In this document: piece after piece, positions 2,080 through 31,832 of the stretch
Layout of the letters: each line of letters starts with the position of its first letter
Numbering within the stretch: the first letter of the stretch is position 1
NCBI RefSeq assembly: GCF_030028105.1
Contig: NC_092398.1
Span: 25,683,649-25,747,648, forward strand
Reading direction: 5' to 3'
From: Mobula birostris
Lineage: Eukaryota
Length of the DNA stretch: 64,000 bases
Notes under the pieces: model-generated
What the model saw: the letters and a program-made list of their open reading frames with translations, nothing else
Told to the model about the DNA's origin: nothing
Database searches by the model: none
Made by a program: the position numbers and the translations under genes

Positions 2080-2110
<31 letters not shown>

Positions 2111-7002: not shown

Positions 7003-7959
7003 ATGTCGTTCTCGGAAGGAGTGTCCAGTTCGACGCTCGCTGGGAATCTCTCCTCCCACAATTCCACGGCCGATGGAAACAGAATGGAGTGGGGAGCACT
7101 TTCCCTCATATCAATGGGCATCTTCGCCCTCACCTTCCTACTGGGCGTTCTGGGCAACAGCGCAGTCATCTGGGTGACCGGCTTCAAGATGAAGAGTAAG
7201 ATCCACACGGTGTGTTTCCTGAACCTGGCTCTCGCTGACCTAATCTATTGCCTGAGCCTTCCCTTCCGCATGACCAACATCATCCTGAGCTACTCTGGGC
7301 ACAACGTCCACTTTTCCCGAAAGTTTTCTGGAACCTTGATGTTCCTCAACGCCGCCGCCAGCATATATCTGTTATGTCTGATCAGCATCTGCCGCTGCCT
7401 GGCTATTACTCGGTCCACTTGGTTGCAGCAGCATCCGAGCCTCACATGGGTTCGTGCGGCCTGCTTCGGACTCTGGATCCTAGCCTTCGTCATGTGCCTG
7501 CCCGTCCTCCTGCTTCAGGATTTGGAGAAGGAATTGGCAGTGTTGGAGCCATTTTGGTTTGTTTGCATCTTCTGCCTCCCTATGGTTATTATGATCACCT
7601 GCTACTCCCTGGTTGGCTGGAGGCTGCAAGGGAACAGGTTCGTCAAAGCTAAGAAACCTGTACACCTCATCATCACCGTTGTCGTCACCTTTATGATCTG
7701 TTGGATCCCCAACGCTGTCTGCGACCTCGTTTCAACCTTCTCCACACCGATTCCCGGAGACTGGTGGTTATTCACTGTCGCCCTGGCCTCCTTCAACAGC
7801 GCCCTCAACCCCCTTCTCTATGTCTTCGCTGGCCGCGAATTCAACCTGGCCTTCAGGCGCTCTTTTGTCACGTCGCTCCGTCTGACCTTCGCCGAGCAGA
7901 GGCTAGAATTGCAGACCCAGGCCCAGACCAGCAACCTCACCTCAAATAGAAATTTCTGA
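7003..7959 (+). CDS. Chemoattractant-type class A GPCR copy 1 (C3aR/CMKLR1/FPR-like), 318 aa, single coding exon
   Basis: Seven hydrophobic segments; TM1 GN, TM2 FLNLALADL..LSLPF, TM4 W, TM5 P, TM6 CWIP, TM7 NSALNPLLY; N-terminal N-glycosylation sequons (NLS, NST). ATG at 7003 lies 8 nt after a polypyrimidine tract + CAG acceptor (6992-6994). Confidence 0.92.
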   Translation: MSFSEGVSSSTLAGNLSSHNSTADGNRMEWGALSLISMGIFALTFLLGVLGNSAVIWVTGFKMKSKIHTVCFLNLALADLIYCLSLPFRMTNIILSYSGHNVHFSRKFSGTLMFLNAAASIYLLCLISICRCLAITRSTWLQQHPSLTWVRAACFGLWILAFVMCLPVLLLQDLEKELAVLEPFWFVCIFCLPMVIMITCYSLVGWRLQGNRFVKAKKPVHLIITVVVTFMICWIPNAVCDLVSTFSTPIPGDWWLFTVALASFNSALNPLLYVFAGREFNLAFRRSFVTSLRLTFAEQRLELQTQAQTSNLTSNRNF

Positions 7960-8244
7960 GGGAGTTCGTAGTGGACAGACATCCGACCGATTTTTTTCCC
8001 TGAATACAGACACAGTGGACAGACCAAAGCAATTGTGGTCGGCAGTGCAATCTCTCAGAACATGGAACATAGAACAATCGGCCTACAATGTATAGTATCA
8101 GTTCAATCAGTCGATAAATGCCCAATTAACCTCATCCTCTCTGCCTACACAAAGGCGATGTCCTTCCCTTTTACTCATTCGACCTATCTAAACATCTCGT
8201 AAGGACCTCTAACCATTCTACTCTCACCATTTCAGCAGCGTATA

Positions 8245-9547
8245 GAAACATAGAAACATAGAAAATAGGTGCAGGAGTAGGCCATTCGGCCCTTCGAGCC
8301 TGCGCCGCCATTTATTATGATCATGGCTGATCATCCAACTCAGAACCCCGCCCCAGCCTTCCCTCCATACCCCCTGACCCCCGTAGCCAGAAGGGCCATA
8401 TCTAACTCCCTCTTAAATATAGCCAATGAACTGGCCTCAACTGTTTCCTGTGGCAGAGAATTCCACAGATTCACCACTCTCTGTGTGAAGAAGTTTTTCC
8501 TAATCTCGGTCCTAAAAGGCTTCCCCTCTATCCTCAAACTGTGGCCCCTCGTTCTGGATTTCCCCAACATCGGGAACAATCTTCCTGCATCTAGCCTGTC
8601 CAATCCCTTTAGGATCTTATACGTTTCAATCAGATCCCCCCTCAATCTTCTAAATTCCAACGAGTACAAGCCCAGTTCATCCAGTCTTTCTTCATATGAA
8701 AGTCCTGCCATCCGAGGAATCAATCTGGTGAACCTTCTTTGTACTCCCTCTATGGCAAGGATGTCTTTCCTCAGATTAGGGGACCAAAACTGCACACAAT
8801 ACTCCAGGTGTGGTCTCACCAAGGCCTTGTACAACTGCAGTAGTACCTCCCTGCTCCTGTACTCGAATCCTCTCGCTATAAGTGCCAGCATACCATTCGC
8901 CTTTTTCACCGCCTGCTGTACCTGCATGCCCACTTTCAATGACTGGTGTATAATGACACCTTGGTCTCCTTGCACCTCCCCTTTTCCTAATCGGCCACCA
9001 TTCAGATAATAATCTGTTTTCCTATTTTTGCCACCAAAGTGGATAACTTCACATTTATCCACATTAAATTGCAGCTGCCATGAATTTGCCCACTCACCCA
9101 ACCCATCCAAGTCACCCTGCATCCTCTTAGCATCCTCCTCACAGCTAACACTGCCACCCAGCTTCGTGTCATCCGCAAACTTGGAGATGCTGCATTTAAT
9201 TCCCTCATCCAAGTCATTAATATATATTGTGAACAACTGGGGTCCCAGCACTGAGCCTTGCGGTACCCCACTAGTCACCGCCTGCCATTCTGAAAAGGTC
9301 CCGTTTATTCCCACTCTTTGCTTCCTGTCTGCTAACCAATTCTCCACCCACACCAATACCTTTCCCCCAATACCGTGTGCTTTAAGTTTGCACACTAATC
9401 TCCTGTGTGGGACCCTGTCAAAAGCCTTCTGAAAATCCAAATATACCACATCCACTGGTTCTCCCCTATCCACTCTACTAGTTACATCCTCAAAAAATTC
9501 TATGAGATTCGTCAGACATGATTTTCCTTTCACAAATCCATGCTGAC
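8245..9547 (-). mobile_element. Young 5'-truncated CR1 LINE with uninterrupted reverse-transcriptase frame
   Basis: [34 protein letters not shown] motifs with no stops up to 8340; 3' tail of (TTTCTATG)n; TATA duplicated at 8241-8244 and 9548-9551; absent from the paralogous sites at ~23070 and ~32140. Confidence 0.95.
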
Positions 9548-9939
9548 TATACCAGGCACACACCACTGTCTGTGTAAATAACTTGCCCCTCGCATTTCCT
9601 TTAGAATGACGCCCTCTCATTTCAAATGCACGTCCGCTGGTATTAGACATTTCAACCCTGGGAAGCATACTGAATATCCATGCCTTTCATGATCTTCTAT
9701 ACCTTATCCCGCCACCCCAGTGAAAATAACCCAAGTGTGTCCAACCTCCCATAGTCGACGATGCTCTCTAATCCAGGCAGCATCCTAGTAAACCTCTGCA
9801 CCCTCTGCAAAGCCTCGACATCTTTCCTGCAATGGGCGACCAGAACTGTATACACCTCTTTCACCAAGTAGTCTCCATGTTCCTCTGACCTCTCGCCTTA
9901 CAAGTCATTTTCACCCTCAGAACAGGATGTATTTTTTCG

Positions 9940-10590
9940 CACCCTTCCCTGTAAACTCCACAGAAATCAGAAGTTACTGAAATATTCAAAACAATCTGTC
10001 TGGCGTGAACTATCATCCGCCATCAAACTCACTTAGATCACATTTCTTCCCCATTCTGATGTTTGGTCTGAACAGCAACTGAATCTCTTGATCATGTCTG
10101 CATGTTTTTACGCATTGCGTTGCTGCCACATGATTGGCTGAATAGATGTTTGCATGGATGAGCAGGTGTTCAGGTCGATCTAATAAAGTGGCCTAATGTA
10201 TTGTAAAGGTCCTGAATATCAAAATAATACTATAAAGAGCAGTAAATTGTAAAACAAAAAAACAAAATTAGATCACTATGTGGTGTTACCACCCTCTGCC
10301 TTTAAAGCTCCATCACTTCTCTTACTTCCACTGTCGTGTAGTTTTATACGAGAATCGGCTGGTAGGTTATCCCAAGCATCCTGGAGAACTTGTCACGGTC
10401 CTTCAGCACACCTTGGCTCACTCGCTTGCTCCTGTTTATCCAAATGATCCCAGGCAGCCTGGATGATGTTGCGGTCAGGTCCCTCTGGACACCATGCCAC
10501 TTAAAACCACACATAAAAAATCTAGCGGACCCAGGACATTGGCACAGTATTAGCTGGATCCTTTGATAGACATCTTCACGGTGCACAGCT
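9940..10590 (-). mobile_element. Two adjacent Tc1-family transposon relics (transposase C-terminal piece and an element left end)
   Basis: Best seen in paralog 23643-24038 ORF: W.PEGPDCNIIEAAWDHL...LKAEGGNTKY (Tc1 WPxxSPDLNxIE...GGxTKY); 9940-10193 matches the Tc1 left-end relic at 56670-56990. Copies at ~23460-24130 and ~34920-35490. Confidence 0.75.
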
Positions 10591-10949: not shown

Positions 10950-11900
10950 GAAGCACACAAGAGACAAGATCTCAGTTCATTCTTTGCCTTTGTACAGCAA
11001 TACATGTGAGTCTTAAGCTTTTAGCAATTTTAATAAAAGTTTCGTGGACATATTTTGAAGAAAATTCGTGATTATACTCCTGTAGACTGTATAGATATTG
11101 TGTACATGTACCGTGTCCTGCTAAAACTATCCGACTTGTATGCGATAAAAACAGTGTTATAGGGTTGTGGTTGTCTTAAGACAACAGCAATTCTTTAGAG
11201 ATCAATCAATTTCCACGCCACATTCCCGTCAACTGCAATTAAATTAAGAAAGTTACAAATGTGTATGACGTCACTGCAGTTTTCCAGGATGGCATTGGGA
11301 TCCTCAGACTTGTCAACGATAAAATACTATTAAATGAAAATAACACGCCCGCCTTTTACAAATCCGATCTGCTTCCTTATACCATCCGGGACATAGTAGC
11401 CGGTCTGCGAGATTATAGGGACGGCTTTCCGCTCAAGTTGGAGTGGAGCCGACGGACAAGACCAGTACTCCCAAGTGCCAAGAAAATTCGTCCTGCAGGA
11501 TCTGTGCTGACTTTAAGGTCAGCATCGATTCAATACTCAAAGTAGATCAATCCCATTGACCAGGATAGAGAATATCTTTGCAAACCGTTCTGAAGGAAAA
11601 CACCTCAGCAAAATGGTCTTAGCTGAGCCCTACATACAGATAGGGAGGGAAGAAGAGTCCAATCTGTTTCTCAGTCCTTATCGCTTAATAGGTATGTTTT
11701 TAGAGCTGCATTTGCACCTGCAGTCTGTCAGAAAACTACGGACCAGGTGCTGGAAAGCTGCCGGGGAACTTAGATTACATCATTGTTACCGGTAAGGATG
11801 ACAAGGAACATCTCCAAAGTCTCATGACAGCGTTAAAAGGATGAATAGATTGGGGATTCTGAACACGACGCAAGTGCGAATTCCTTACGCCAAGCATCCT
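10950..11900 (+). mobile_element. Gypsy/Ty3 LTR-retrotransposon pol relic (related pieces at 1-100, ~24490-25040, ~36175-36330 and ~37473-37855)
   Basis: Degenerate RT motifs: FYK..LPYTIRD, LEWS..TRPVLP..KK, RIENIFAN..GK.LSKM.LAEPYIQ, YIIVTGKDDKEHL. Confidence 0.75.
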
Positions 11901-12299
11901 TCAAAGGTGGCTGCGGTTGTCTGTAGAATCAGCCCGCACCATCACGGGCAGAAATGCGGCCGCCATCAAGGAAATCTTCAAGAGGACTGCATGCATCATT
12001 AAAAACTCTAACCACCTGGGGAGAAGCCGTCTTCTCGTTACAACCACGGGAGAGGAGGTACAGGAGCCCGAAGATCCACACTCAGTGATTCAGGAAACAT
12101 TTCTTCCTGTCCGTCATCTGAACAACCCATGAACATGACCGCACGATTGCTTTTTATTCTACAAACTCATTATGTATTTTGCAATTTGTAGTGATTTTTA
12201 GTATTTTGCAGAGTAATTCTACAACAAATCAACAAATTTCACGCCAACTATACTGTGGTGATAGTAAGCCAGATAAAACCATACGCTCGACTTTTATTC

Positions 12300-13980
12300 T
12301 GTCAACACCCACCATTAAAATTCCCCATGTCAACAAATCGCGTTACAATTTCACGCGGGGCAACCCCTGCCGTCCGTTCCAGGGGGACCATAAGGCAAGG
12401 TCTTGGGTCCACGAGCATCTGAAGCCACGACCCACCCGAATCCGCTTTTCAAAGTAATTTCTTCTTCCTCCAGTCTGTCCCTTCGCTCCCCCGTGGGAAG
12501 TCCACAGAGCACCCCTCCGCTCAATGTATCTCCCGCCACCGCGCCCTCCCCTCCCCCCGGCTCCTGGCTCAATGGACCCAAACGTGACGGCGGGAGAGGA
12601 GGCAGCGGCCAACGCCGACAACCGGCTGCGTTTCCATCCATTGGTTGATGCACCTCGACCGGATGCCTCGGGACGGAGGAGGACATAAAAGAGCTGAGGC
12701 GCAGGGTGAGACAAAGGAAGATCCGCCCGCCGGGAAAACAGACGGCAGACACAAACACGGCGCGAACAGCGGCGTAGACCTTCGTGGTATACGCATGCGC
12801 GCAGCCAAGGAGGCTCCTGGGGAATGTAGTCAAAAGTGGCTCCATCCTCAAAAAATTTTGAATCAACTTTTTGTGATTCAACTTTTTGTCCGTCCTGTTC
12901 TGCTATGAATGACAGCATGCTCGGAAAACAAGAAAGCGTGTTTTCCAGAGACACTGGCATTTAGGGCAGCAATGAAGGTCTTACGTCTCTGGCAGAGTTC
13001 ATCATCGTGTCAGTAGCTTCGTCTCTGTCTTCGCTGCTGTTAGACATCCTTGGTGAAGACTCAGGAATATCATCGCACTCAGATGTAGAAGGATCCTTCA
13101 TTGCTGTTTCCATAACAGTTTTGTTTTACTAGACAGGGTTAGCCCTGAGCTGAACCTCCGAGCCTGGAGGACCAGTGCATATCTCTTAACCTGGAGCCTA
13201 TCCTGAGATTTCTTCGGCATAGGTGACCCTAGCAAGAGCCAAAGCATGAAGGCCTAACTCTAGCCAACATTGTTCTTCGGGCCATTGAGGCACACAAGCC
13301 TCCAAACCCCACGACGAGGTTGTCGTCCTTTTGATGGGATGAGGAGATTAAAAGAAAAGGCGGCGGGCGGTAGGGTAAATCCTTCTCCACTGGCCTTGGG
13401 TGAAATCTTAAGGGTCATCCGTGGTGCTTAAAATTCTAGAGAGACGGGAACTGCCGCCAGTGAGGGATGAGCAACAGCGACTCGCAAAACACGAGAAACG
13501 CGAGGTAGGCAGCTCGAGAATCCGAATGCTCGAGACCCCCATTCCTCCCACACCCCTACACATTCCAGTCACCACAGGTACTACTCTCCTGCTCTCACGC
13601 ACACAGTGCGGAGGGTGAGAAGGGAGCCCTGTACCGCCCATGAATGATAGCGCGCCCGGGTAACGGGAGAGCGTGGCGTACAGGAACACTGGCCTGGGAG
13701 AAAGTTCCGAAAACAGATGGATGCAGGAAGGGAGAAGTCAGAGATCTGTACACATGACCCCACCCTCCGCAGCAACCTCAAGCAAATAACACAAAAACTA
13801 AAGGCGGCGGATATACAAAGCAGACGGGGAAGAGAGACCCACAGGACCGGTGGGAAGCCAACGTCCTTTTGCGATAAGGGAGAGACTTGTTACTTCCACC
13901 AGCAACGAGCTTCCTCACACAAACTGCAGCGCAGACTCTCTATGCACCTGTCTCGCAAAACCTGGCAGGGATGAAGGTAC
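12300..13980 (+). pseudogene. Decayed duplicate of the LAGE3 locus (promoter, exon 1 at 12584-12633, start of intron 1, part of intron 2, downstream region) lacking exons 2 and 3
   Basis: 12300-12831 resembles 40095-40650; 12955-13510 resembles 42320-42845; 13690-13975 resembles 44350-44645. Start codon mutated to GTG (12584) and donor to CCATCCATT. Confidence 0.8.
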
Positions 13981-15620
13981 AGCAGCGGTGGCTGAAATTT
14001 CTGGCAGCCATCAGAAGACAAGCGATCTATACAGCCCAATGCGGATGTATACTAAAGGCAAGATGACGCAACCATGGCTATAAAGGGAAATCAGCGCCAA
14101 CATAAAAAAACAAAGTGAGGGCATATCGTAGAGCAAATTGGTGGAATGCTAGAGGATTGCTAAGCTTTTACAAACCAACAGCAAGCAGCTCCAAAAGTCA
14201 TTAATGCACAGATTCAAGACAAAACTAAGCTAGTCAACAGTATTAAGGAGGATACCAAAAGTTTCTTGAGATACATAAAGTGTGAAACAGAGCCAAGAAT
14301 CGATATTGGGCCACTGGTAAATGATGTTGGAGAGGTAGTAGTGGAGGATAAAGAAATGATGGACGAACTGAATAACTGTTTTGCATCAGTCTTCCCTGTG
14401 GAAGACACTAGCAGTACAGTGGAAGTTCAGGATGTCAGAGGTCAGGAAGTGTGTAAGGTCTCCATTACCTGAGAAGATTCTTCGGAATCTGAAAGCCTGA
14501 AGCTGGATTAGTCATCTGGACCCGATGGTGTACACCCCAGCCTTCTGAAAGAGATGGCTGAAGAGCTTTTGAAGGCATTATCTGACGAAATAGCAAGAAG
14601 GATAGCCAAAAGAGAATCGGTTGATGTTGTGTACTTGGGTTTTCAGAAGGCTTTTGTGAAGGTACCACACCTGACGTTACTTAATAAACTACGACCCCAT
14701 GGATTTACCGGAAATATTCCAGCGTGGATAAAGTAGTGGCTGCTTAGCAGGAGGCAGAGAGCGGGAGCCTTTTCTGGCTGGTTGCCGGTGACAAGTTGTT
14801 TACCTCAGGGGTCTCTGATTGGTCCGATTCTTTTTACATGATATGACAATTTCAGTGACAGAATTCATGGCCATGTTGCTAATTCTGCAGACGGTACAGA
14901 TGGATTAGAAGTTAGCTTTGATGGAGTAGTGAGGCTACAAAAGATCAGACAGATAAGGAGAATGGGCAAAGAAGTACAGGATGCAATATAGTGTCGAAAA
15001 ATATCTGGTCATGCACTTTGGTAGAAGAACTGGAAGTGTTGACTATTTTCAGAATGGATAGAATTTTTTTATGAGGTGTAAAAGGATTAGGGATTCCTCG
15101 TACAGTACACTCTGAAGGTTAATTTGCAGGTTGATATTCTGGTGAGCAAAGCAGACGCGATGTTAACATTCATTTCAAGAGGATACAGAATCTAAAAACA
15201 AAGATGTGATGTTCAGAATTAATGAAGCAATACAAGGGTCTCATTTGCACTATAGTGAGCAGAATTGGGCCCGTTATCTCAGATCGAATGTGCTGTAACT
15301 GGTAAGTGTTCATAGGAGATGTACGGAAATCTTTCCAGGGTTGAAAGACTTGTCATGTGAAAAGTGTTTGATGGCTCTGGACCTGTAATCACCACAATGA
15401 GCGTAGGCTAATTGAATCCTATCGGACAGTGAAAGGCCTTTATAGGGTCGATATGGACAGAAGGTTTCCTTTGGTGGAATAGTCTAATACCACGAAACAC
15501 AGTCTAGGGGTAGAGGAGAGGCCTTATTAGAACGGAGATAAGGAAGAATGTCCTTAGCCAGAAAGCAATGAATCTGTGGAATTCGTTGACGCGGGCTGCT
15601 GTGGAGGCCAAGTCTCTTCA
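13980..15620 (+). mobile_element. Degraded CR1 ORF2 fragment
   Basis: EMMDELNNCFASVF, VDVVYLGFQKAFVKVPH, and CR1 3' region; many stops and frameshifts. Confidence 0.85.
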
Positions 15621-16649
15621 TGGCAACTTTATTTCATATGTGAGATACATAATCAAATAGCTGCTGAGTGTAAGTCAAAAATACTGATGGTCCACTCGAT
15701 TAGATTATGAGGACACTCAGTCCTCGTTTATTGTCATTTAGAAATGCATGCATAAAATGTGCTACAATGTTCCCCCAGAATGATATCACAAGAAACACAG
15801 GACAAACCAAGACTAAAACAGACAAAACCACATAATTATAACATATAGTTACAACAGTGCAAAGCAATACCGTAATTTGATAAAGAGCAGACCATGGGTA
15901 CGGTAAAAAAAATAGAAAGAAAATAACAATAAAGAAATAAAAATAAATATTGACAACTTGAGGAAAGAGTTCTTGAAAGTGAGTTGGTAAGTTGTGAAAT
16001 CTGTTCAGTGTTGGGATGAGAGAAGTTATCTGTTCTGGTTCAGCACCCTGGGATGGTCGACGGGTAATAGCTGTTCCTGAACCTGGCGGTGTGCTACCGA
16101 AGACTCTGATGCCTCCTGCCCGATGGCTGCAGAGAGAAGGGAGCAGGCCTGGATGGCAAGCATGCTTGCTGATGGATGCTGCTGTCTTGCGACGGCTCTC
16201 CTCGCAGATGTGCTCGGATGGTGGCGAGGTCTTTACCTGTAATGGAGTGCTAAAGCTCTCCCGAGACGCCGTGAATCCCGTACATACTGTACAGTGAATG
16301 CGATACAGCAGAAATTGCTGTAGTGCAGTATTTTGGAATTTCACCCTGTAATGAATTTTTGAAATAACTCGGTTTCCTCGGCTGCTTAAATCCAGGGAAT
16401 TCAATCTCCGGCTCCGCCAAACCCGCATATTGAGGCGCAATCCCACCCAAAATCCCTTGTTTCTGTGGATGTTGTATAATTCACTACCCTATTAAACATT
16501 GGTGTGACGACATAACAGACAGTACACCGCACACGATCAAAAGATTTAACTTTACACTTCCTAATTTGACGAAAGGGTTAATAAAGAAAATAACAAAATA
16601 AGGAAAGGGCCCATTTTAATGTAACAGTCTAATATGCACCAGTTGGAGC

Positions 16650-16826
16650 AGTTCGGAGGAGCGACATCTCGGCAAGAGCAATTTATTAAAAAGAGCCAGT
16701 AACAATAATTGAAGTACAAACTGAGCGGCCATTCTTTTGAGTGAGCCAGTCTTTAGAGTGGCTTTGGATAATTAGGTTTCGGCGATATCAGGCTTCGGAG
16801 AAGTATGTCTTATATGTTATTCTCTC

Positions 16827-16891
<65 letters not shown>

Positions 16892-19030: not shown

Positions 19031-21823
19031 ACTAGAGGGGGTTAATTTCAGAAATTAACCACGTGGCCTCTTTATCTGCTTTACTTCTCGAAAATAAAAG
19101 GAAATGTTTTGTTCTTGAGAGCTTGCTGAGTAAAGTATTATCTCCTGATGTCAACACCTCAGTTTCCTCATATTGAGCTTCTTGGAACTTCAAACCCAAA
19201 GAATCTCTACCGAGGTGGACTAACTCATCTCGTCGGTGCATTCCGAATTAAGACCCTACTTTTGCTAAATCAGCATCCAAGTTCCGCATAAGACACAACT
19301 CCTCAATATATCTCGAGCACCCGAAGAAACCCACCGTCCAACTTAACGTCTGAGTGCAAGTATACAAAACTGCTGAGGACCGGGACACAGCCGGAGACTC
19401 TAGGGACAGGTGAGATGCATTTCCACCGGGTTTATATTAATTTGGAAATGTGGCGACTGATCAGGGAACATCGGCGTGGCTGTGTTCCGCAAGAAACCTT
19501 GTCTTCCTGCTTTCGGGAGGTTTTTCAGGAGATAACTCAGTTAGCCAATGAAGGCAGGGCAGTGGGTTTGGCAACATGCAGTTCAGTGAGGAGAACTTTA
19601 GAGATTACAGGGACTGGGCTTGTTTTCCATGCGGTCGAAGAACGCTGACGGATGACCTGACAAAATAAATTAAGATAACAGATACAGAGACAGTGTAGAA
19701 AGAATCGCTTCCCGTGGTAGAAGCAAAATTGAGAGGAAGGCTTATATTTATCCTGAGGAAAGGAGATTTAAGTCGAATATAAGGGATTTTTTTTAAGTTT
19801 GTTTTAATTCTCAAATTGATTTCGAGATACAGCGCGGTAACAAGCCCTTCCGGCCCTACGAGACCGCCCCGCCCAATTTCACCCATGTGATCAATTAACC
19901 TATTAGAATTTCCAGCCTTCTGGGCTTGAAAGGCTTATCATGTGAGGAAGGTGTTTTGGTCCTGGGCTTCTACTCACTGGAATTCAGAAGAATGAAACGG
20001 GACTTCGTTGAAACCTGTGGAATGTTGAAAGGCCTCGACACAGTCGATGTGGAGTAGATGTTTCCTATGTTGTGGGAGGCTAAGAGCAGCCGACACAGTC
20101 TCAGAAGGGAAGGCCGTCCTTTTAGAAGGGAGATTCTGATTAATTTCTGAAGCCAGAGAGTGGTGAATCTGTGAAATTCATTGCCACAGGGAACTCCATC
20201 TTTCGGTATTTTTAAGACAGAGGTGATTGATTCTTGATTGGTCAGGACATGCTCGGAAACATGGGGGAAGGCAAGAGGTTGGTGCTGAAAAGTAATATTG
20301 CGGAACGGACTCGATGAGCCAAATACTGCTAGTGGTAGAAGTCGTTTATAAGCTGATGAGAGGCAGAGATGGAGTAGTCAGACAGTATCTTTATTTTTCA
20401 AGTGTTGAAATGGCCAGTACCAGACGGCGTGCCTTTAAGGTGAGAGGGGGTAAGATCAAACGAGATGTGAAGGGTAAGTTACGTTTTCACAGAGAGCGGT
20501 GGGGGCCTGGAATACGCTGAAAGAGTGGTGGTGGAGGCAGATACATTGAGACTGTTCAGAGTCGCTTGAATGGGAACATGAATGTTAGGGAAATGGACAT
20601 TTTGTCAGCAGTCGCGATTAGTTACGTTGGCCGTCTGAATACTAATTTAATTGGTTCGGTACAATATTGTGGACTATTCCTGTGCTGGGTGATTCTTTGT
20701 TCATGCAGGGCTCTGCAAAGCGTCCTGGGCACATTTCTGTAGTGAGGGTGACTTCGACTTTTGCACAGTATTGTATTTGTCAACGGAGACCGGAGAGCGT
20801 CGGGCGGAAGCAAAGGATGATGGGAATGGCGAAGGTGAAGCGGCTCGGGAGGGATGAGGGACAGGTACCAGAGAAGGAGTGCCAGGGACGGTGCTGGAGG
20901 CGGTTGCTGGCTCGGATGCAGACACGCGCGGACCTGGGACACCAGGGAAGGTCATTTGATTCTAAACTATTCGTTTAGTGATTATTACAGAATGACCCTC
21001 TGGTGCTTCCCGCTTCCTCCCATCTCCCTTCCACCTTTTCCCAAACGCGCTTCAATTCTCCCATTCTCCCATTCTCCCAGCCCCCTTACCACTCTCAGTC
21101 CACAGCAAAGACCCATGTCAGAATCTGCTCACTCACATACATCATGAAATTTGGTGACATTGCAATGCATCAAATTAATAAAGTAATTTTTAGTGATAGT
21201 AACCGGCCCAACGAGCCGCACTGCCCATCAACCTACCTGGTTAGCCACAGGGAAGTTCACAAAGGTCAATTAACCTAAGTACTAGAACGTTTTTGGAATG
21301 TGGGAGGAAAGCAGAGTACCCAGGGGAATCCCCCACGGTCACGGGAGTTAGTGTTAGTGGTGGTAGTCGCTTGATCGCTCGAGTCCAGTATGATGTTCTT
21401 CTAAGGGATTGTCATCCGTGGGTCCTCGACTGGCTGTAGAGGCCGATCCAGGATCCACATAACGGCAGTGTTCGGGGGCATTCCCTTAGTGGAGATCGGC
21501 TGTGCGGAACTTTGTCTAACTTGGGGAAGCTAATATACGGGCAGACATCACATGGTCGTTGACAGATCGGGGACATGCCGGGGTGACGGTGCGGTCAGGG
21601 TCCAGTGGCTTGGAATGCAAGACGACTGTGGTCTCTGCGCTGACGCAGACATCGGCCGCCTTGACGGCCGTTGTGGTGTGTCAGGCTTCTGTTCCATGTT
21701 ACACCCCACCTCTACTCGCCTTCCTCTCCTTCCCTCTTCCCTCTCGCCTCTCCTCCTGAATTCGCAGTCTCTCCATTCTACACCCCTCTCACTTCCACAA
21801 TATCTCCCCCACCAGATCCGACA

Positions 21824-22765
21824 ATGTCGTCCAGTTCGACGCTCGCTGGGAGTCTCTCCTCCCACAATTCCACGGCCGATGGAAACAGAATGGAGTGGGG
21901 AGCACCTTCCGTCATATCAATGGTCATCTTCGCCCTTACCTTCCTACTGGGCGTTCTGGGCAACGGCGCAGTCATCTGGGTGACCGGCTTCAAGATGAAG
22001 AGTAACATCCACACGGTGTGTTTCCTGAACCTGGCTCTGGCTGACCTGATTTATTGCCTGAACCTTCCCTTCCGCATGTCCAACACCTCCCTGAGCTACT
22101 CTGGGCACAAAGCCTACTTTACCTGGAAGTTTTCTGGAACCTTGATGTTCCTCAACGCCGCCGCCAGCATATATCTGTTATGTCTGATCAGCATCTGCCG
22201 CTGCCTGGCTATTACTCGGCCCATTTGGTTCCAGCAACATCTGAGCCTCATATGGGTTCGTGCGGCCTGCTTCGGAATGTGGATCCTAGCCTTCGTCATG
22301 TGCCTGCCCGTCCTCCTGCTTCAGGATCTGGAGAAGGAATTGACCGTGTTAGAGCCAATTTGGTTTGTTTTCATCATCGGCCTTCCCTTTGTAATTATGA
22401 TCACCTGCTACTGCCTGGTTGGCTGGAGGCTGCAAGGGGACAGGTTCTTCGAATATCCGAAACCTGTCCGCCTCATCATCACCGTTGTCGTCGCCTTTAT
22501 GATCTGTTGGATCCCCAACACTGTCTGCGACCTCGTATCAACCTTCTCCACACCGATTCCCCGGGACTGGTCGTTATTCACTGTTGCCCTGGCCTCATTC
22601 AACAGCGCCCTCAACCCCCTTCTCTATGTCTTCGCTGGCCGCGAATTCCGCCAGGTCCTCAGGCGCTCCCTTCTCGCCTCGCTCCGTCTAGCTTTCGCCG
22701 AGCAGAGTCTAGAACTGGAGAGCCAGGCAGAAAACCGCAACCTCATCTCAAATACAAATGTCTGA
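21824..22765 (+). CDS. Chemoattractant-type class A GPCR copy 2, 313 aa
   Basis: Intact paralog of copy 1 with an in-frame 15-nt deletion (FSEGV) in the N-terminus; same acceptor context CCACCAG|ATCCGACAATG. Confidence 0.92.
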   Translation: MSSSSTLAGSLSSHNSTADGNRMEWGAPSVISMVIFALTFLLGVLGNGAVIWVTGFKMKSNIHTVCFLNLALADLIYCLNLPFRMSNTSLSYSGHKAYFTWKFSGTLMFLNAAASIYLLCLISICRCLAITRPIWFQQHLSLIWVRAACFGMWILAFVMCLPVLLLQDLEKELTVLEPIWFVFIIGLPFVIMITCYCLVGWRLQGDRFFEYPKPVRLIITVVVAFMICWIPNTVCDLVSTFSTPIPRDWSLFTVALASFNSALNPLLYVFAGREFRQVLRRSLLASLRLAFAEQSLELESQAENRNLISNTNV

Positions 22766-25230
22766 GGGAGTTCCTCGTGGACAGACATCCAACCGATATC
22801 CCCTGACTACAAACACAGTGGACAGTCGGATGCAATTGTGGTCGGCAGTGGAGGCTTTGCTACACTCCTATTTTCATCTCTCAGAACGTAAAACATAGAC
22901 CATTCGGCCTACAATGTACCGTATCAATTCAATCAGTCGATAAATGGCAATTAACCTCATCTCCTCTGCCTACACAATGGCGATATCCTTTCTTTTTACT
23001 TATTCTACCTATCTAAACATCGCTTAAAGATCTCTAACCTATCTGCTCTCACCACCATTCCAGGCAGCGTATTCCAGGCACACACCACTGTTTGTGTAAT
23101 TAACTTGCCCCTCGCATTTCCTTTGGAATGACGCCCTCTCACTTTAAATGCACGTCCTCTGGTGTTACACATGTCAACCCTGAGAAGCATACTGAATATC
23201 CATGCCTTTCATGATCTTCTAAACCTCATCCCGCCACCCCAGTGAAAATAACCCAAGTGTGTTCAACCTCCCGTGTCGACGATGCTCTCTAATCCAGGCA
23301 GCATCCTGGTAAACCTCTGCACCCTCTGCAAAGCCTCGACATCTTTCCTGAAATGGGCGACCAGAACTGTATAAACCTCTTTCACCTAGTAGTCTCCATG
23401 TTCCTATGACCTCTCTGCTTACAAGTCATTTTCACCCTCAGAACAGGATGTATTTTTTCGCACCCTTCTCTGTAAACACTACAGACTGTCATACGTGTAA
23501 ATCCCATTTAATCAGCAGTTTCTGAAATACTCTAAACAATCTGTCTGGCGTGAACTATCATCCGCGGTCAAAGTCACTTAGATCACATTTCTTCCCCATT
23601 CTGATGTTTGGTCTGAACAACAACTGAATCTCTTGACCATGTCTATATGTTATTATACATTGCGTTTCTGCCATATGATTGGCTGATTAGTTGTTTGCTT
23701 TGACGAGCAGGTATACAGGAGTCCATTATAAAGTGGCCTAATGAATTGTAAAGGTTCTCAATATCAAAATAATACCATAAAGAGCAGTAAATAGTAAAAT
23801 CAAAATCAGATCCATATTTGGTGTTACCACCCTCTGCCTTTAAAGCTCCATCACTTCTCTTACTTCCACTGTCGTGTAGTTTTATAAGAGAATCAGCTGG
23901 TAGGTTGTCCCAAGCATCCTGGAGAACTTGCCACGGTCCTTCAGCACACCTTGGCTCTCTCGCTTGCTCCTGTTTTTCCAGGTGATCCCAGGCAGCCTCG
24001 ATGATGTTGCAGTCAGGTCCCTCTGGACACCATGCCACTTAAATGCACACATAAAAAATCTAGCGGGCCCAGGACATTGGCACAGTATTAGCTGGATCCT
24101 TCGATTGACATCTTCACGGTGCACAGCTCAACCAAACCTTTGTGTCGATAACCCATCTATTTGCATATCCATCCATGTTATTAATATCTATCACAAACAA
24201 CTGAAATTCCTGGCACTGCTCTGTGCGGAAAACCGCTGGACCTGTCTTACAGTCAGAATAACACCCACCGCCACCGCCACCCCCACCCCCCACCCCCACC
24301 TTCTATGGACATGCCAAAGTTGAATCCAGGGAAGAAAGACGCCGTGGATTCCGTCCATAATGCACATTCAGTACTATCACCTCAGTGTTTCGGCCCGGTT
24401 GTGTTTGAAAGATTGGCGCCCTCTAGAGGCGCAGTCCACTGTATACCACTTCCTGCAAGCAGGGTGATTTTTCCTTTCTCTCTGATATGAAGCACACAAG
24501 AGACAAGATCTCAGTTCATTCTTTATTTGACTTTGAACAGCAGTACCCGTGAGCCTTAAGCTTTTAGCAGTTTTAATAAAATTTTCGTGGACATATTTTG
24601 AAGAAAGTTCGTGTTTATGCTCCTTTAGACAGTATAGATATAGAGAACATGTAAAAATTACTTGATCCCTTCTGCAGTAAAACAAGAAGGGCTAGCATTG
24701 TAGGGGGCCGATTGGCTAAGATAACTATTTTGGAGATCAATCAATTTGCATGCCACATTCCCATCAAGTGAATGCAAATTAAGGAAATTACAGCAGTGTT
24801 CAGGGATGGCATTGGGAAACGTAAACATGTCAAGGGTAAAATCCTGTTAAGTAAAAATGCCGCACCCACGTTTTACAAATCCGGTCTAGTTCCTTATCTT
24901 ATACTATCCATGACAAAGTAGCCAGTGAGCTAGACCATATAGAGACTGAAGACATTCGACCAAGGTTGAGTGGAGCCTGTGAGCAACACCAGCGGTCCCA
25001 AGAGTCAAGGGATTTGAGCCTGCCAAGATCTGTGGTGATTTCACCACTTTCACGCTGAAAAAAAAATTCTCCGCATCTCTGTTTTAAAAGGATGCCTTTC
25101 TACCCTGAGATTGTGCCCTCTTGTCCTAGACTCCAGCACCATGCGAAACATCCTATCAACGCACACAAAATGCTGGAGGAACTCAGCAGGCCAGGCAGCA
25201 CTTATGGAAAAAAGAACAGTCGAACATTCG

Positions 25231-25575
25231 GGCCTCCCCTTTCCAATTATGATCACCTGCTACTCCCTGGCTGGCTGGAGGTTCGCCAAATTTAACAAAC
25301 CTGTCCGCCTCATCATGACCGTAGTCATCACCTTTATGATCTGTTGGAAACCCAACGCTGTCTGCGACCTCCTATCAATCTTCTCCATACCGATTCTCAC
25401 GGACTGGTCATTATTCAATGTGGCTCTGGCCTCCTTCTCTATGTCTTCGCTGGCCGCGAATTCCACTAGGTCTTCAGGCGCTCCCTCCTCACCTCGCTCC
25501 GTCTGGCCTTCGCCGAGCGAAGAATTGGCGAGCCAGACCCAGACCCGCAACCTCACCCCAAATACAAATGTCTGA
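25231..25575 (+). pseudogene. GPCR pseudogene: TM5-C-terminus only
   Basis: LPFPIMITCYSL..WR..PVRLIMTVVITFMICWKPNAVCDL; 15-nt deletion in ICL3 and 22-nt frameshifting deletion removing NSALNP; 5' two-thirds missing; 3' flank 25576-25920 matches the other GPCR flanks. Confidence 0.9.
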
Positions 25576-28500
25576 GGGAGTTCCTCGTGGACAGACTTCC
25601 GACCGATATCCCCTGACTACAGACACAGTGGACAGTCGGATGCAATTGTGGTCAGCAGATGAGGGGCTTTTCTACTCTCTTATTTTAATCTCTCAGAACA
25701 TAGAACATAGACAATTCGGCCGACAGTGTACCGTATCAAATCAATCAGTCGCTAAATTGCCAATTAACCTAATTCCCTCTGCCTAAACAATGTCGATACC
25801 CTCCCATTATGCTCATTCTACCTATCTAAACATCTCTTAAAGGTCTCTAACCTATCTACACTCAGCACCATTCCAGGAAGCGCATACCAGGTACACAGCA
25901 CTGTCAGTGTAAATAGCCTGGACGAATTACCGGGGGATGGAGGGGCACAGTAACCGGGTCTCTGGCACTGAGTCTGGAGCTGTACTCAGCAGAGCAGAGA
26001 GGTGAAGACGACTGCAGTGTTGACAGTCAAAGAAACGGAGATGATGTTCTGTGGGCGCGGTAATGACACCAGAATGGTACGTGGCCTCCCTGATGCCAGG
26101 ATCAGTGATGTCTCTGAACGGATCCATGGCATTCCTCAAGGCGAGGGTGAACAGTCAGAAGTCTTAGTATGCATTGGCACCAATGAACTAGAGACACAAA
26201 GTGAGGAAGACCTGAAGAGATTTTAGGGAGCTCGGTAGAAAGCTGAGAATCAAGACGACCGGGGTACTAATCGATGGACTACTGCCTGTGCCATTTGACA
26301 GTGATCGTAAGCATTGGAAGAATTGCCAGGTAAATGAGTGGCTGATGAGCTGTTGTAGAGGGCAGGCAGGGGGTCAGATTTAGAGAATACCAGGGTCTCC
26401 TCTGGGAAAGCTATGGCCTGCACAAATTGGACGGATTACACCTGCACGCGAGGAGGTCCAATATCCTTGTGGGCGGGTTCGCTGAAGTTGTTCGGGAATG
26501 TTTTTTTCGTACGGAGGTGAGAACAAAAGAGATCGTGCTGAATAGGAAGCAGTTGGTCTACAAACAGAGACAATGCGTAGTGAGACTCCTAGCAAGGAAA
26601 GGCTAATGACAGGAAAAATTGCAGTCAACAGGATGAGTCGCAAAGTAAAAGGCGGACAAAATCGAAAAGGCCGACCAGAGGACTGAGGGTGTTGCACTTT
26701 AATTCACACAGCATACGGCAGCAGAGAGATCAACTTGTATTGTAGCAAAGTTACAGATTTTCATGGATGATGGAGAGGGCATTCCTGAATCGTGGCTGAA
26801 TGAAGATTGTAGCTGGGAGCTTAATGTCAAGGGATGCACAATGTATGAAAGGTCAGGCAGGAAAGCAGAGGGGAGGCGTTACTCCGTTGTTTAAAAAAAA
26901 ACACAAATGAAATGAAATCATTTCGGTTAGAACTAAGGAAATGCAAGTGCAAGAAGTCCTGGTTGAAGTTATTGTGGAATTGAATAAAAAGCTTAAGGGA
27001 AAAGACCCCAAATGGGAAGAGATCATAATATAAACGAATTTACTCTGACAAGGAGAAGCTAAACGCTCATATATTAGTTTTACAGCAGAGTAAAGGGAAT
27101 TAGAGTCACGACAGATGAGTTGGCCAGAATTGCTTGGAAAAGAACACTGGCAGGGATGATGGCAGAACAGCAATGGCTGGAATTTCTGGAGCGATTTGGA
27201 AGGCAACACATATATAGATCCCAAACAGGATGAAGTATTCTAAAGGCAAAGTGAAACAATCATGGCCAAGATGAGGAGTTAAAACCAACATAAACCCAAA
27301 CATTACAGCAAGAATCGCTAGATATCTAGGGGATTAACAAGCTTTTAAAAGCTCCAGATGGAATAGGAAGGTAAGCTAGCTAATAATATTAAAGAGGATA
27401 ATAAATGTTTCTTTAGAAACGTAAAGTGATAAAGAGAAGCGAGAGAGGCAATATGGACGGCTGTAAAAAGGTGCTGCAGAGATACTAATGGGGGACACGG
27501 AAACGGTGGACCACCTGATTAACTACTTTACATCAGTGTTCATTGTGGGAGACACCAGCATGAAGTCTGTGAATTCACTATTCCTAGGGAGAAAGTTTTG
27601 GGGAACCTCAAAGGTCTGAACGTAGATAGATCACATGGACCAGAGGGGGTTAATTTCAGAAATTAACCACGTGGCCTCTTTATCTTCTTTACTTCTCAAA
27701 AAAAAAAGGAAATGTTTTGTTCTTCACTGCTGTCCAAGTAAAGTATTATCTCCTGATTTCAGCATCTCAGCTTCCTCATATTGAGCTTCTTGGAACTTCA
27801 AACCCAGAGAGTCTCTACTGAGGTGGTAACTCATCTCTTCCGCTCAGTCGGGATTAAGACCCTACCTTTGCTAAATCAGCATCCAAATTCCGCACAAGAC
27901 TCAACTCCTCAATATATCTCGAGCACCCGAAGAAACCCACCGTCGAATTTAACGTCTGAGTGCAAGTATACAAAACTAGCTGAGGACCGGGACACAGCCG
28001 GAGACTCCAGGGAAAGGTGAGATGCATTTCCACCGGGTTTATATTAATTTGGTAATGCGGCGTCTGATCAGAGATCATCAGCGTGGCTGTGCTGCGGAAG
28101 AAACCTTGTCCTCCTGCTTTCGGGAGGTTTTTCAGGGGATAATTCAGTTAGCCAGTGAAGGCAGGACAGTGGGTTTCTCAACATGCAGTTCAATGAGGAG
28201 AACGTTAGAGATTACAGAGGTTGGGCTTGTTGTCCATGGGGTCGAAGAACGCTGACGGATGACCTGACAAAATAAATTCAGATAACAGATACAGACACAG
28301 TGTCGACAGAATCGCTTTCCCGTGGTTGGAGCTAAATTGAGAGAAAGGCTTATATTTATCTTGAGGAAAGGAGATTTAAGTCGAATATAAGGGATAGTTT
28401 TTTTTTAAAGTTTGTTTGAATTCTCAATTCGATTTCGAGATACAGCAGGTTAACAAGCCCTTCCGGCCCTACGAGACCGCCCCGCCCAATTTCACCCATG

Positions 28501-30875
28501 TGATCAATTAACCTATTAGTGTCTCCAGCCTTCTGGGCTTGAAAGGCTTATCATGTGAGGAAGGTGTTTTGGTCCTGGGCTTCTACTCACTGGAATTCAG
28601 AAGAATGAAAGGGGACTTCGTTGAAACCTGTGGAATGTTGAAAGGCCTCGACACAGTCGATGTGGAGTAGATGTTTCCTATGTTGTGGGAGGCTAAGAGC
28701 AGCCGACACAGTCTCAGAAGGGAGGCCCGTCCTTTTAGAAAGAAGATTCTGATTAATTTATGAAGCCAGAGAGTGGTGAATCTGTGAAATTCATTGCCAC
28801 GGGGAGGTGCATGTTTCTGTATTTTTAAGACAGAGGTGATAGATTCTTGATTGGTCAGGACATGCTCGGAAACAGGGGGAAGGCAGGAGGTTGAGGCTGA
28901 AAAGGAGTATGGCGGAGCAGACTCGATGGGCCAAATGGTCTAATTCTGCTCCTATATCCGATGGACTTATCATCTTATATATGAGGAAACTGGAGCACCC
29001 AGAGAAACTCGCGATACCGGGGACAGATTCTAAACTGTCTCCAGAGAGCGGCGGGAGTTCAACCCGGTTCGTTGGCGCTGCAGCAGAGTTGTGCGAATCA
29101 CAGCGCTACCATGCCGTCCAAGATGAATTGACACATTGAACGTGGCTGCCGGAGGAGGTGACAGACATCATATGCATTCAGTACGTTTAAGAGATACTTA
29201 GGCAGGCACGTCAACAGATGAGACATACGCGGTCACGGTTCCAAAGGGTTGCAAGATGGATTGGTGTAAATGGGGAAATGGTAGGCATGGCCTGCTAGAC
29301 CAAGGACCTGTTTCTGTAGTGTACTTGTAGCAATAGTAATAGTAGTAATATTAGTAGTGCTAGTGATGGTCGTAATGGTGGTAGTGGTAGAAGTAGTTTA
29401 CAAGGTGATGAGCGGCAGATACGGAGTAGGCAGACGGTATCTGTTTCGCCAGTGTTGAAATGGCCAGTACCAGAGGGTGTGCCTTTAGGGTGAGTGGGGG
29501 TAAGATGAAAGGAGATGTGAAGGGTAAGTTACGTTTTCACAGAGAGCGGTGGGGGCCTGGAATACGCTGAAAGAGTGGTGGTGGAGGCAGATACATTGAG
29601 ACTGTTCAGAGCCGCTGGGATGGGAAAATGAATGTGAAGGAAATGGACATTTTATCAGCAGTCGCGATTAGTTACGTTGGCCGTCTGAATACTAATTTAG
29701 TTGGCTCGGTACAATATTGTGGACTATTCCTGTGCTGGGTGCTTCTGTGCTCTTTCAGGACTCTGCAAAGCGTCCTGGCCACATTTCTGTAGTGAGGGTG
29801 ACTTCGACTTTTGCACAGTATTGTATTTGTCAACGGAGACCGGAGAGCGTCGGGCGGAAGCAAAGGATGATGGGAATGGCGAAGGTGAAGCGGCTCGGGA
29901 GGGATGAGGGACAGGTACCAGAGAAGGAGGGCCAGGGACGGTGCTGGAGGCGGTTGCTGGCTCGGATGCAGACACGCGCGGACCTGAGACACCAGGGAAG
30001 GTCATTTGATTCAAAACAATTAGTTTATTGATTATTACAGAATGACCCTCTGGTGCTTCCCGCTTCCTCCCATCTCGTTTCCCCTTTCCCCAATAATAAT
30101 TCCCTTCTCCCAGCCCCCTTACCACTCTCAGTCCACAACAAAGACCCATGTCAGAATCAGGTTTAACGTCACTCACATATGTCATGAAATTTGTTTCTCT
30201 TTTGCTGACAGTGCAATGCATCAAATTAATAAAGAACTTTTTAGTAAGAGTAACCGGCCCAACGAGCCGCACTGCCCATCAACCTACCTGGTTAACCACA
30301 GGAAAGTTCACAAAGGTCAATTAACCTAAGTACCAGAACGTTTTTGGAATGTGGGAGAAAAGCAGAGTACCCACGGTAATCCCCCACGGTCACGGGAGTG
30401 AGTATTAGTGGTGGTAGTTGCTTGATCGCTCGAGTCCAGTATGATGTTCTTCTAAGGGATTGTCATCCGCGGGTCCTCGGCTGGTTGTAGAGGCCGATCC
30501 AGGATCCACATAACGGCAGTGTTCGGGGGCATTCCCTTAGTGGAGATCGGCTGTGCGTGACTTTGTCTAACGTGGGGAAGCAAATACACGCGACAGACAT
30601 CACATGGTCGTTGACAGGTCGAGGACATGCCGGGGTGACGGTGCGGTTAGGGTCCAGTGGCTTGGAATGCAAGACGACTGTGGTCTCTGCGCTGAAGCAG
30701 ACATCCGCCGCCTTGACAGCCGTTGTGGTGTGTCAGGTTTCTGCTCCGTATTACACCGCATGTCAACTCGCCTTCCTCTCTTTCCCTCTTCGCTCTCGCC
30801 TCTCCTCCTGAATTCGCCGCCTCTCCATTCTGCACCGCTCTCACTTCCACAATATCTCCCCCACCAGATCCGACA

Positions 30876-31832
30876 ATGTCGTTCTCCGAAGGAGTATCCA
30901 GTTCGACACTCGCTGGGAATATCTCCTCCCACAATTCCACGGCCGATGGAAACAGAATGGAGTGGGGAACACCTTTCGTCATATCAATGGTCATCTTCAC
31001 CCTCACCTTCCTACTGGGCGTCCCGGGCAACGGCGCAGTCATCTGGGTGACCGGCTTCAAGATGAAGAGTAAGATCCACACGGTGTGTTTCCTGAACCTG
31101 GCTCTGGCTGACCTAATCTATTGCCTGACCCTTCCCTTCCGCATGTCCAACACCTCCCTGAGCTACTCTGGGCACGAAGCCTACTTCTCCTGGAAGTTTC
31201 TTCGAACCTTGATATTCCTCAACGCCGCCGCCAGCATATATCTGTTATCTCTGATCAGCATCTGCCGCTGCCTGGCTATTACTCGGCCCACTTGGTTGCA
31301 GCAACATCTGATCCTCACATGGGTTCGTGCAGCCTGCTTCGGAGTCTGGATCCTAGCCTTCGTCATGTGCCTGCCCTTCCTCCTGCTTCGGGATTTGGAA
31401 AAGGAAATGGCCGTGTTGAATCGATTTTGGTTTGTTTTCATCTTCTGCCTCCCCTTTGTAATTATGATCACCTGCTACTCCCTGGTTGGCTGGAGGCTGA
31501 GAGGGAACAGGTTCGTCAAATCTAAGAAACCTGTACACCTCATCATCACCGTTGTCGTCACCTTTATGATCTGTTGGATCCCCAAAGTTGTCTGCGACCT
31601 CGTATCAACCTTCTCCACACCGATTCCCGGGGACTGGTCGTTATTCACTGCAGCCCTGGCCTCCTTCAACAGCGCCCTCAACCCCCTTCTCTATGTCTTC
31701 GCTGGTCGCGAATTCCGCCAGGTCCTCAGGCGCTGCCTTCTCGCCTCGCTCCGTCTGGCCTTAGCCGAGCAGAGGCTAGAATTGGAGATCCTTACCCAGA
31801 CCCGCAAACTCACCCCAAATGCAAATTTCTGA
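30876..31832 (+). CDS. Chemoattractant-type class A GPCR copy 3, 318 aa
   Basis: Intact paralog; LGVPGNGAVIWV TM1, LNLALADL TM2, CWIP TM6, NPLLY TM7; same acceptor/ATG context. Confidence 0.92.
   Translation: MSFSEGVSSSTLAGNISSHNSTADGNRMEWGTPFVISMVIFTLTFLLGVPGNGAVIWVTGFKMKSKIHTVCFLNLALADLIYCLTLPFRMSNTSLSYSGHEAYFSWKFLRTLIFLNAAASIYLLSLISICRCLAITRPTWLQQHLILTWVRAACFGVWILAFVMCLPFLLLRDLEKEMAVLNRFWFVFIFCLPFVIMITCYSLVGWRLRGNRFVKSKKPVHLIITVVVTFMICWIPKVVCDLVSTFSTPIPGDWSLFTAALASFNSALNPLLYVFAGREFRQVLRRCLLASLRLALAEQRLELEILTQTRKLTPNANF

Follow-up and report, generated by a model that had tools for sequence, protein, structure and literature searches.

Predicted lidless offshoots of an anaphylatoxin receptor form a diversifying tandem family in the ray Mobula birostris

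What has become of three receptor genes that would be labelled C3aR-like by automated annotation, yet have lost several landmarks of that receptor? They lie in a 64,000-nucleotide stretch of the Mobula birostris genome (RefSeq assembly GCF_030028105.1, contig NC_092398.1, positions 25,683,649 to 25,747,648), hereafter the window, and are called copies A, B and C. An initial annotation of positions 7003..31832, which start at the ATG of A and end with the stop codon of C, had proposed an expanding family of atypical G-protein-coupled receptors (GPCRs). Our favoured answer, with about an even chance of being right, is drawn from sequence comparison and modelling: tandem duplicates of an anaphylatoxin receptor would have turned into open-pocket, diversifying G-protein-coupled sensors for changing non-complement ligands, probably on leukocytes.

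The three copies have the hallmarks of class A receptors, namely the fold of seven transmembrane helices (7TM), the PF00001 domain and N1.50, D2.50, R3.50, W4.50, P5.50, P6.50 and NPxxY. Motifs were tabulated for 80 derived proteins from five species and for 22 normal elasmobranch relatives. The 80 rows leave out 13 partial or frameshifted database models, two proteins that match window copies exactly, 13 from M. birostris for which the genomic loci were used instead, and nine open paralogs from a near-identical array of the same genome. All three window copies end transmembrane helix 3 (TM3) with ISICRCLAI, as first noticed. This had been described as a change from DRY to CRC, and the part concerning position 3.49 stands. 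The parental motif was already DRC, which is found in 20 of the 22 normal relatives and, within SLDRCL, in human C3aR; therefore only Asp3.49 changed, as D3.49C in the window copies. D3.49 is present in 22/22 normal and 0/80 derived proteins. The derived proteins carry Y (27), C (22), F (13), V (7), S (7), L (2), H (1) or I (1) instead, and Cys is not fixed at this position.

The disulfide between TM3 and extracellular loop 2 (ECL2) was lost on both sides. Alignment to C3aR places an Arg in A and a Trp in B and C at the position of its Cys3.25 ('FLCKL'), and the W-P motif of ECL1 is missing from the window copies, both in line with the initial annotation. Cys3.25 was found in 3/80 derived proteins (and in three more of the partial models left out) and an ECL2 Cys in 7/80; no derived protein has both, while all 22 normal relatives do. 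In the stingray derived proteins P0018, P0019, P0021-P0023 and P0033, a Cys occupies 3.25 and its ECL2 partner is missing. Because these copies nest inside the derived clade, their Cys was probably regained from Trp. The short Cys-free linker reported between TM4 and TM5 was also recovered: the span from 4.60 to 5.50 measures 24 amino acids in the window copies, with a loop part devoid of Cys, compared with 45 in 20 of the 22 normal relatives. Among derived proteins it measures 29 (29 proteins), 24 (23 proteins) or 17-21 (25 proteins).

The ligand pocket was altered as well. R5.42 is retained in 3/80 derived proteins (W in 56/80) and R4.64 in 23/80 (Q, Q and R in A, B and C, and never C in the 80), compared with 22/22 normal relatives in both cases. 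The Trp that had been noted eight residues ahead of the TM5 Pro is W185, with P193 at 5.50, and aligns with R340 (5.42) of C3aR. Y6.51 persists in 9/80 and D7.35 in 1/80 derived proteins (21/22 normal relatives each), and P3.29 in none of them (22/22). The signalling core was kept in nearly all of the 80: N1.50 (79), D2.50 (79), S3.39 (72), R3.50 (79), P5.50 (76), Y5.58 (73), F6.44 (79), W6.48 (75), N7.49 (80), Y7.53 (80) and F8.50 (77). The shared losses are not due to chance, because most of them are common to the 80 derived proteins, whereas C3.25, D3.49, R4.64 and R5.42 are present in each of the 22 normal relatives.

According to the parts of a structural study that could be consulted, Arg77 of C3a is gripped in human C3aR by D417 (7.35), Y174 (ECL2), R340 (5.42) and Y393 (6.51), and replacing any of these by alanine strongly lowers Gi activation (bioRxiv 10.1101/2023.01.18.524551). 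All four are missing from the window copies: 5.42 is W, 6.51 is N, N and K, 7.35 is W, S and S in A, B and C, and the ECL2 segment with the Tyr is deleted. Because all four anchors were lost in these copies, the derived receptors are unlikely to bind C3a. It is very improbable, in our judgement, that they are still anaphylatoxin receptors that bind ray C3a, C5a or fragments of these in some altered way. C3aR is their nearest solved relative by sequence and fold, R4.64 survives in copy C and in 23/80, and a shark-type C5aR1-like gene was not found in this genome (117 of 583 candidates scored), so that C5aR1 was possibly lost in this ray lineage and its role could be vacant. However, each of the lost anchors matters in human C3aR, the genome still has seven intact normal receptors, and the pocket is hypervariable instead of re-fixed.

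The initial annotation had expected structure prediction to show no extracellular disulfide, and alignment and model agree with this. A first AlphaFold run with 40 derived sequences gave low confidence (predicted local distance difference test, pLDDT, 64). With 118 sequences, including normal receptors, the model of copy C reached a mean pLDDT of 81.5 and a predicted template modelling score of 0.75. In this model, TM4 (147-170) and TM5 (174-208) are joined by a 3-residue turn, with no strand or hairpin. A substitute extracellular disulfide was considered and is unlikely, since all Cys of the window copies fall in helices as judged from alignment and model. The top match in a fold comparison was C3aR (Z 29.1, root-mean-square deviation 1.9, 259 residues aligned), with many other entries within 1 Z.

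Similarity to C3AR1 and C5aR1 reflects direct descent: the best sequence match has an E-value of 3e-55, the clade is nested in their group at 100/99, and the x-R-C end of TM3, the sodium pocket and the PIF, CWxP and NPxxY motifs are shared. The derived receptors differ from C3aR in lacking the C3.25-C45.50 disulfide, in an ECL2 reduced to a turn (about 172 amino acids in human C3aR; a 4.60-5.50 span of 45 in normal rays), in the loss of D3.49, R5.42, Y6.51 and D7.35, in a positively selected pocket and in number (37 derived loci here, one or a few C3aR genes). A different resemblance, to the MAS/MRGPR receptors, was first suggested from motifs and includes the short ECL2, the absence of C3.25 and C45.50, a non-acidic 3.49 (QRC in MrgD), lineage-specific expansion and, to judge from the model, probably an exposed pocket. 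Unlike MRGPRs, the derived receptors lack a C4.64-C5.33 disulfide (as defined for MrgD in the portion of PMC9287403 consulted), and MrgD lacks the W6.48, P5.50 and sodium site that they mostly keep (W6.48 75/80, P5.50 76/80, S3.39 72/80). Melanocortin receptors also have a very short ECL2, no C3.25 and a large open vestibule, according to the same source (PMC9287403, in part), but they belong to an unrelated class A branch, are not among the 50 fold matches listed and are an analogy of shape. By sequence, the ray receptors are probably not members of the MRGPR family and would have converged on the MRGPR and melanocortin shape.

Trees were built after removal of the columns that carry the traits in question (ECL1, ECL2 and 3.49). 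FastTree placed the 80 derived proteins of a 122-row alignment in one clade (Shimodaira-Hasegawa support 96). A careful IQ-TREE analysis of 36 rows nested this clade (98/93) within batoid receptors (96/90), these within elasmobranch receptors (99/97), and these within the C3aR and C5aR1 group (100/99), which, with the ray clade, excludes FPR and CMKLR1 at 100/99. The derived genes are thus, on sequence evidence, offshoots of an elasmobranch anaphylatoxin receptor, nested among normal copies of the same contig. The initial annotation had held them to be probably not anaphylatoxin receptors; this is upheld for C3a binding, which is unlikely, but not for descent, as there is no separate lineage. 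With C3aR and C5aR1 in a polytomy, the parent may be the orthologue of either, and synteny was uninformative (a search for neighbours of the NECAP family, PF07933, matched C32, C920 and C1651, and not the window's contig, C34). Sharks carry a second anaphylatoxin receptor (P0372, P0380), which groups weakly with C5aR1 (86/77). The suggestion that the MRGPR likeness is convergent agrees with the free trees, in which the gecko MRGPRD-like protein P0259 lies outside the elasmobranch clade; an approximately unbiased test did not reject derived and MAS-like proteins as one clade (p 0.066), the MAS-like side being two long-branch halves of one gecko protein.

Two protein searches of the M. birostris genome, with 125 of 351 candidates scored in one and 126 of 401 in the other, gave lower bounds for the number of loci. 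At least 37 derived loci lie on C34 at 20.2-25.7 Mb (25 open 7TM frames and 12 broken), together with at least seven intact normal receptors at 21.02-21.16 Mb. The frame of derived locus L015 is interrupted by a stop. Near-identical paralogs form an array at 24.19-24.70 Mb (L007-L021, L027 and L029-L032), spaced by about 26-31 kb; most of these lack the first ATG, and their second Met lies a few residues before TM1, leaving hardly any N-terminus. The closest database proteins among the matches listed come from Mobula, Hemitrygon, Hypanus and Pristis. The derived clade is present in sawfish, stingrays and devil rays, and every relative inspected from sharks, chimaeras and the electric ray is normal; the proposal of an expanding, lineage-restricted family is supported. 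Among the matches listed, skates contributed neither normal nor derived proteins and the electric ray one normal protein, which does not imply that the clade is absent from either. Twelve near-identical derived proteins from Hypanus sabinus (the P0013 cluster), spread over many small scaffolds, suggest either a burst of very recent date or haplotigs. A connection with venom was dropped, since sawfish, which are stingless, carry the clade.

A profile search of 1.84 billion representatives returned 135 new proteins (38 were not scored by the script and were inspected in part), and nearly all scorable ones keep C3.25. The frog FPR-like proteins P0199 and P0217 and the unnamed P0235 and P0253 lack C3.25, keep DRC and group elsewhere; three of the four also lack the ECL2 Cys. 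Within the superfamily, then, the disulfide has been lost repeatedly, but the complete set of changes was observed only in rays. No prior description of lidless ray receptors was found in the open-access literature, supplements of ray genome papers aside, and the ray genes are a real and apparently undescribed form within a known receptor family.

The derived genes share the two-exon plan of the normal ray paralogs. A conserved exon-1 element, which ends in a GTGAGA donor, lies 2.4-2.9 kb upstream of each window copy. Its matches were confined to C34 at 23.8-25.7 Mb, mostly just upstream of receptor copies (40 of 57 candidates scored). The derived exon-1 profile also matched upstream of three of the four normal genes tested (E-values 2e-17 to 2e-15; 0.002 for the fourth, L064), and reversed controls gave no match. 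The element is therefore homologous in normal genes, and the derived genes inherited the parental first exon. Exon-1 copies with no coding match nearby, at C34 positions 23898476, 24013993, 24701753 and 25542384, are either orphan promoters or belong to unscored genes. GGAA cores are conserved in the element, and we take them to fit the ETS/PU.1 consensus.

This inherited exon bears on the idea that the receptors were neofunctionalised for chemosensation in olfactory, skin or other sensory cells. Clustered expansion and a diversifying pocket do resemble chemosensory families, and rodent vomeronasal FPRs provide a precedent, but these captured a V1R/V2R promoter and first exon (PMC7873101, as far as its text was available). 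The ray genes keep exon 1 of the normal paralogs and show no such promoter capture, and the matches to this exon among the candidates scored are confined to the cluster; we consider a chemosensory role quite improbable. FPR1/2 and the rodent Fpr-rs genes otherwise share with the derived genes the superfamily, a single coding exon, lineage-specific expansion and positive selection on the ligand face, and differ in that FPRs retain the disulfide, ECL2 and DRC.

Contigs of four sequencing runs of relatives (X1-X4) were aligned to positions 25900-32400; that these runs are RNA is a guess, and X3 is probably DNA. Pieces from X1, X2 and X4 span parts of the coding exon of copy C at about 90-96% identity. 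One X2 contig covers 27793-28013, ends three nucleotides before the donor and continues with 84 letters that were not placed there. These data are a weak hint that the copy C locus is transcribed.

Selection was analysed with codon models fitted to 21 of this genome's 25 open derived copies, with the seven normal copies for comparison. The ratio of nonsynonymous to synonymous substitution rates (dN/dS) of the derived copies was 0.41 in the inner half of the receptor (twice the log-likelihood difference, 2dL, from a ratio of 1 was 90) and 1.14 in the outer half, versus 0.13 and 0.28 in the normal copies. Model M2a was preferred over M1a in the derived copies (2dL 100), with a site class of omega2 4.2 on 11% of sites; the preference held without loop columns (2dL 47), in a 9-copy array (2dL 9.9) and in the window copies plus L002 (2dL 10.9), and was not significant in normal copies (2dL 1.5). 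Sites with a posterior above 0.9 were concentrated in the outer half (20/84 versus 3/170 inner; Fisher p 3e-8). They include 3.28, 3.29, 4.64, 7.35 and 7.39, all described as touching C3a in human C3aR (bioRxiv 10.1101/2023.01.18.524551, in part); positive selection also falls on pocket position 3.31 and on the loops. In mammalian FPRs, positive selection on ligand-binding loops has been tied to bacterial ligands, according to the available part of bioRxiv 10.1101/2021.08.02.454796, and FPRs serve as a functional precedent for the sensor reading.

Several results weigh against a family of open-pocket sensors on leukocytes. Of the 37 derived loci, 12 are broken; in 14 of the 25 open ones the first ATG is missing, and their start would fall at a later Met near TM1. 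For the window copies plus L002, dN/dS was 0.76 (inner half 0.66), not significantly below 1 (2dL 2.2 and 3.1). We wrote the site models ourselves in numpy, keeping the topology fixed and rescaling the branch lengths, and unmodelled gene conversion may inflate their signal. Escape from pathogen proteins, instead of new sensing, would also account for the positive selection. Concerning expression, a strict ETS pattern matched at only one site, where 0.09 were expected, which hints weakly at myeloid expression; one X1 contig also covers intron sequence (28047-28300), and no spliced joint was found among the contigs listed (126 more are unlisted).

The broken loci, together with pairwise dN/dS values of 0.7-1.0 among A, B and C, agree with redundant duplicates under relaxed selection that drift to pseudogenes while unequal crossing-over keeps the array large; likewise, no Logan-sourced derived protein was among the matches listed. 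The initial annotation had also mentioned such decay. We judge it improbable for the family: the inner half is under purifying selection, core motifs are nearly invariant in 80 proteins of five species, one site class has omega well above 1, and donor and acceptor sites are conserved. Moreover, under point mutation only, a neutral open frame would survive with a probability of 0.09 at distance 0.1 and 0.0015 at 0.4.

A more serious alternative, still unlikely, is that the receptors are ligand-independent and constitutively active, giving a tonic signal, and that their outer face evolves fast only through pathogen escape or lack of constraint. D3.49 is gone in 80/80, mostly replaced by hydrophobic, aromatic or small residues, while R3.50 is kept in 79, and the whole outer half has a dN/dS not different from 1. 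By analogy, raised basal activity from the loss of D3.49 is plausible: mutation of this residue lifts basal activity in several GPCRs and MrgD, with Q3.49, is basally active (PMC9287403), and the parental type, C3aR, already has high basal activity (bioRxiv 10.1101/2023.01.18.524551), as far as these sources could be consulted. We nevertheless count it against this alternative that the R5.42-Y6.51 bond, said in the same C3aR study to stabilise basal activity, was lost and that the sodium pocket (D2.50, S3.39, N7.45 and S7.46) is intact, unlike in MrgD. One tonic function would also hardly explain dozens of diverging paralogs, and the selected sites include pocket positions within helices.

The altered 3.49 would also suit atypical decoy, scavenging or presenting receptors with diverse ligands and weak G-protein coupling, such as GPR1, which lacks a canonical DRY and activates G proteins weakly, or the non-signalling CCRL2 (PMC5055294, in part). 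Against this stand R3.50, the P/W of intracellular loop 2, Y5.58, NPxxY and F8.50, all conserved under purifying selection, and the fact that protein-capturing surfaces (ECL2 and, in many copies, the N-terminus) are what was removed. A decoy role is in our view about as improbable as decay.

The features of the window are listed in Table 1. The earlier feature list holds as far as it went; it had missed the broken copy D and the upstream non-coding exons, as well as the loss of Y6.51 and D7.35.

Table 1. Receptor-related features of the window (window coordinates).
Feature	Position	Strand	Remarks
Segmental duplication unit with exon 1 and coding exon of copy A	831..8243	+	91.6% identical to 15574-23072 (copy B)
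Promoter and exon 1 of copy A, both predicted	4235..4611	+	donor CAG/GTGAGA
Copy A coding exon, 318-aa lidless C3aR-type GPCR	7003..7959	+	PF00001; R3.25, C3.49-R-C, W5.42, N6.51, W7.35
Promoter and exon 1 of copy B, both predicted	19034..19409	+	donor CAG/GTGAGA
Copy B coding exon, 313 aa	21824..22765	+	PF00001; W3.25, C3.49, W5.42, N6.51, S7.35
Broken copy D, only TM5 to C-terminus, internal deletions including a frameshift	25230..25575	+	no Pfam match
Segmental duplication unit of copy C	25920..32381	+	about 90% identical to 17270-23313, three pieces
Promoter and non-coding first exon of copy C, both predicted	27640..28016	+	donor AAG/GTGAGA (28016/28017); ETS-like GGAA cores near 27705 and 27770
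Splice acceptor (cag) with its pyrimidine tract, 8 nt ahead of copy C ATG	30830..30867	+	same ahead of A and B
Copy C coding exon, 318 aa	30876..31832	+	PF00001; W3.25, C3.49, W5.42, K6.51, S7.35

Copies A, B and C, each with one coding exon, are mutually 82-83% identical and sit in segmental duplications, about 90% identical, which reach several kb upstream. In the tree, each is paired with a sister protein of M. hypostoma (A with P0002, 92% identical over tree columns; B with P0005, 93%). P0001 of M. hypostoma is 93% identical to copy C, which also has a near-identical twin, L001, elsewhere on the contig. Outside the receptor units, an 831-bp duplicate links window positions 1-831 and 11809-12639 (97.8% identity). 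Reverse transcriptase (RVT_1) frames of repeats of LINE type (long interspersed nuclear elements) lie at 8340-9686 (-) and 33722-34567 (+), and further repeat-like frames, outside the Pfam scan, at 32861-33400, 36473-37090 and 49070-49903. LINE-type repeats may promote the tandem duplication of receptor units. Two small-GTPase exons (Pfam Ras) at 51107-52127 (-) are presumably RAB7-like. A second tandem cluster, on C36 at 17.8-18.2 Mb (L053-L055), holds more than 10 single-exon class A GPCRs with DRY that are unrelated to the clade and that we assume to resemble HCAR/OXER-type receptors.

The reading as open-pocket sensors builds on the following course of events. A C3aR-type receptor of elasmobranchs duplicated in tandem, with copies being born and lost and the ancestral first exon duplicated along with the coding exon. 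ECL2 was shortened by 16 residues (from 45 to 29) and later trimmed to 24 and about 20; D3.49, C3.25, R5.42, Y6.51 and D7.35 were lost, and with them the TM3-ECL2 disulfide and the residues that anchor C3a. The signalling core (D2.50, S3.39, R3.50, P5.50, Y5.58, F6.44, CWxP and NPxxY) was kept, with purifying selection on the inner half and positive selection at pocket positions and in the loops, around a pocket predicted to be open and unlidded. Expression may be expected where the parent gene is expressed; in mammals, receptors of the parental type are found on myeloid cells. The ligands might come from microbes, parasites or damaged tissue, and signalling would be of the Gi type, with a threshold possibly lowered because D3.49 is gone.

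The TM3-ECL2 disulfide is kept in more than 90% of class A GPCRs (PMC9287403, in part). Families without it, such as MRGPR, melanocortin receptors and CB1, are old, and the course of their loss cannot be followed. In this ray, a single cluster still contains the normal parent alongside its graded derivatives, which makes the loss of the disulfide, of the lid and of D3.49 directly testable; such tests would bear on how a peptide receptor survives these losses, on basal activity and on ligand range. Tentatively, and with somewhat less assurance than for the sensor reading itself, we suggest that rays may have independently built an MRGPR-like family from a complement receptor: dozens of lidless, pocket-hypervariable GPCRs per genome would serve as germline-encoded, diversifying pattern recognition on leukocytes, with the intermediates (45, 29, 24 and 20) alive in one cluster. 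For comparative immunology, the finding points to an unrecognised, fast-diversifying receptor repertoire of rays that is labelled 'C3aR-like' or 'FPR-like' in databases.

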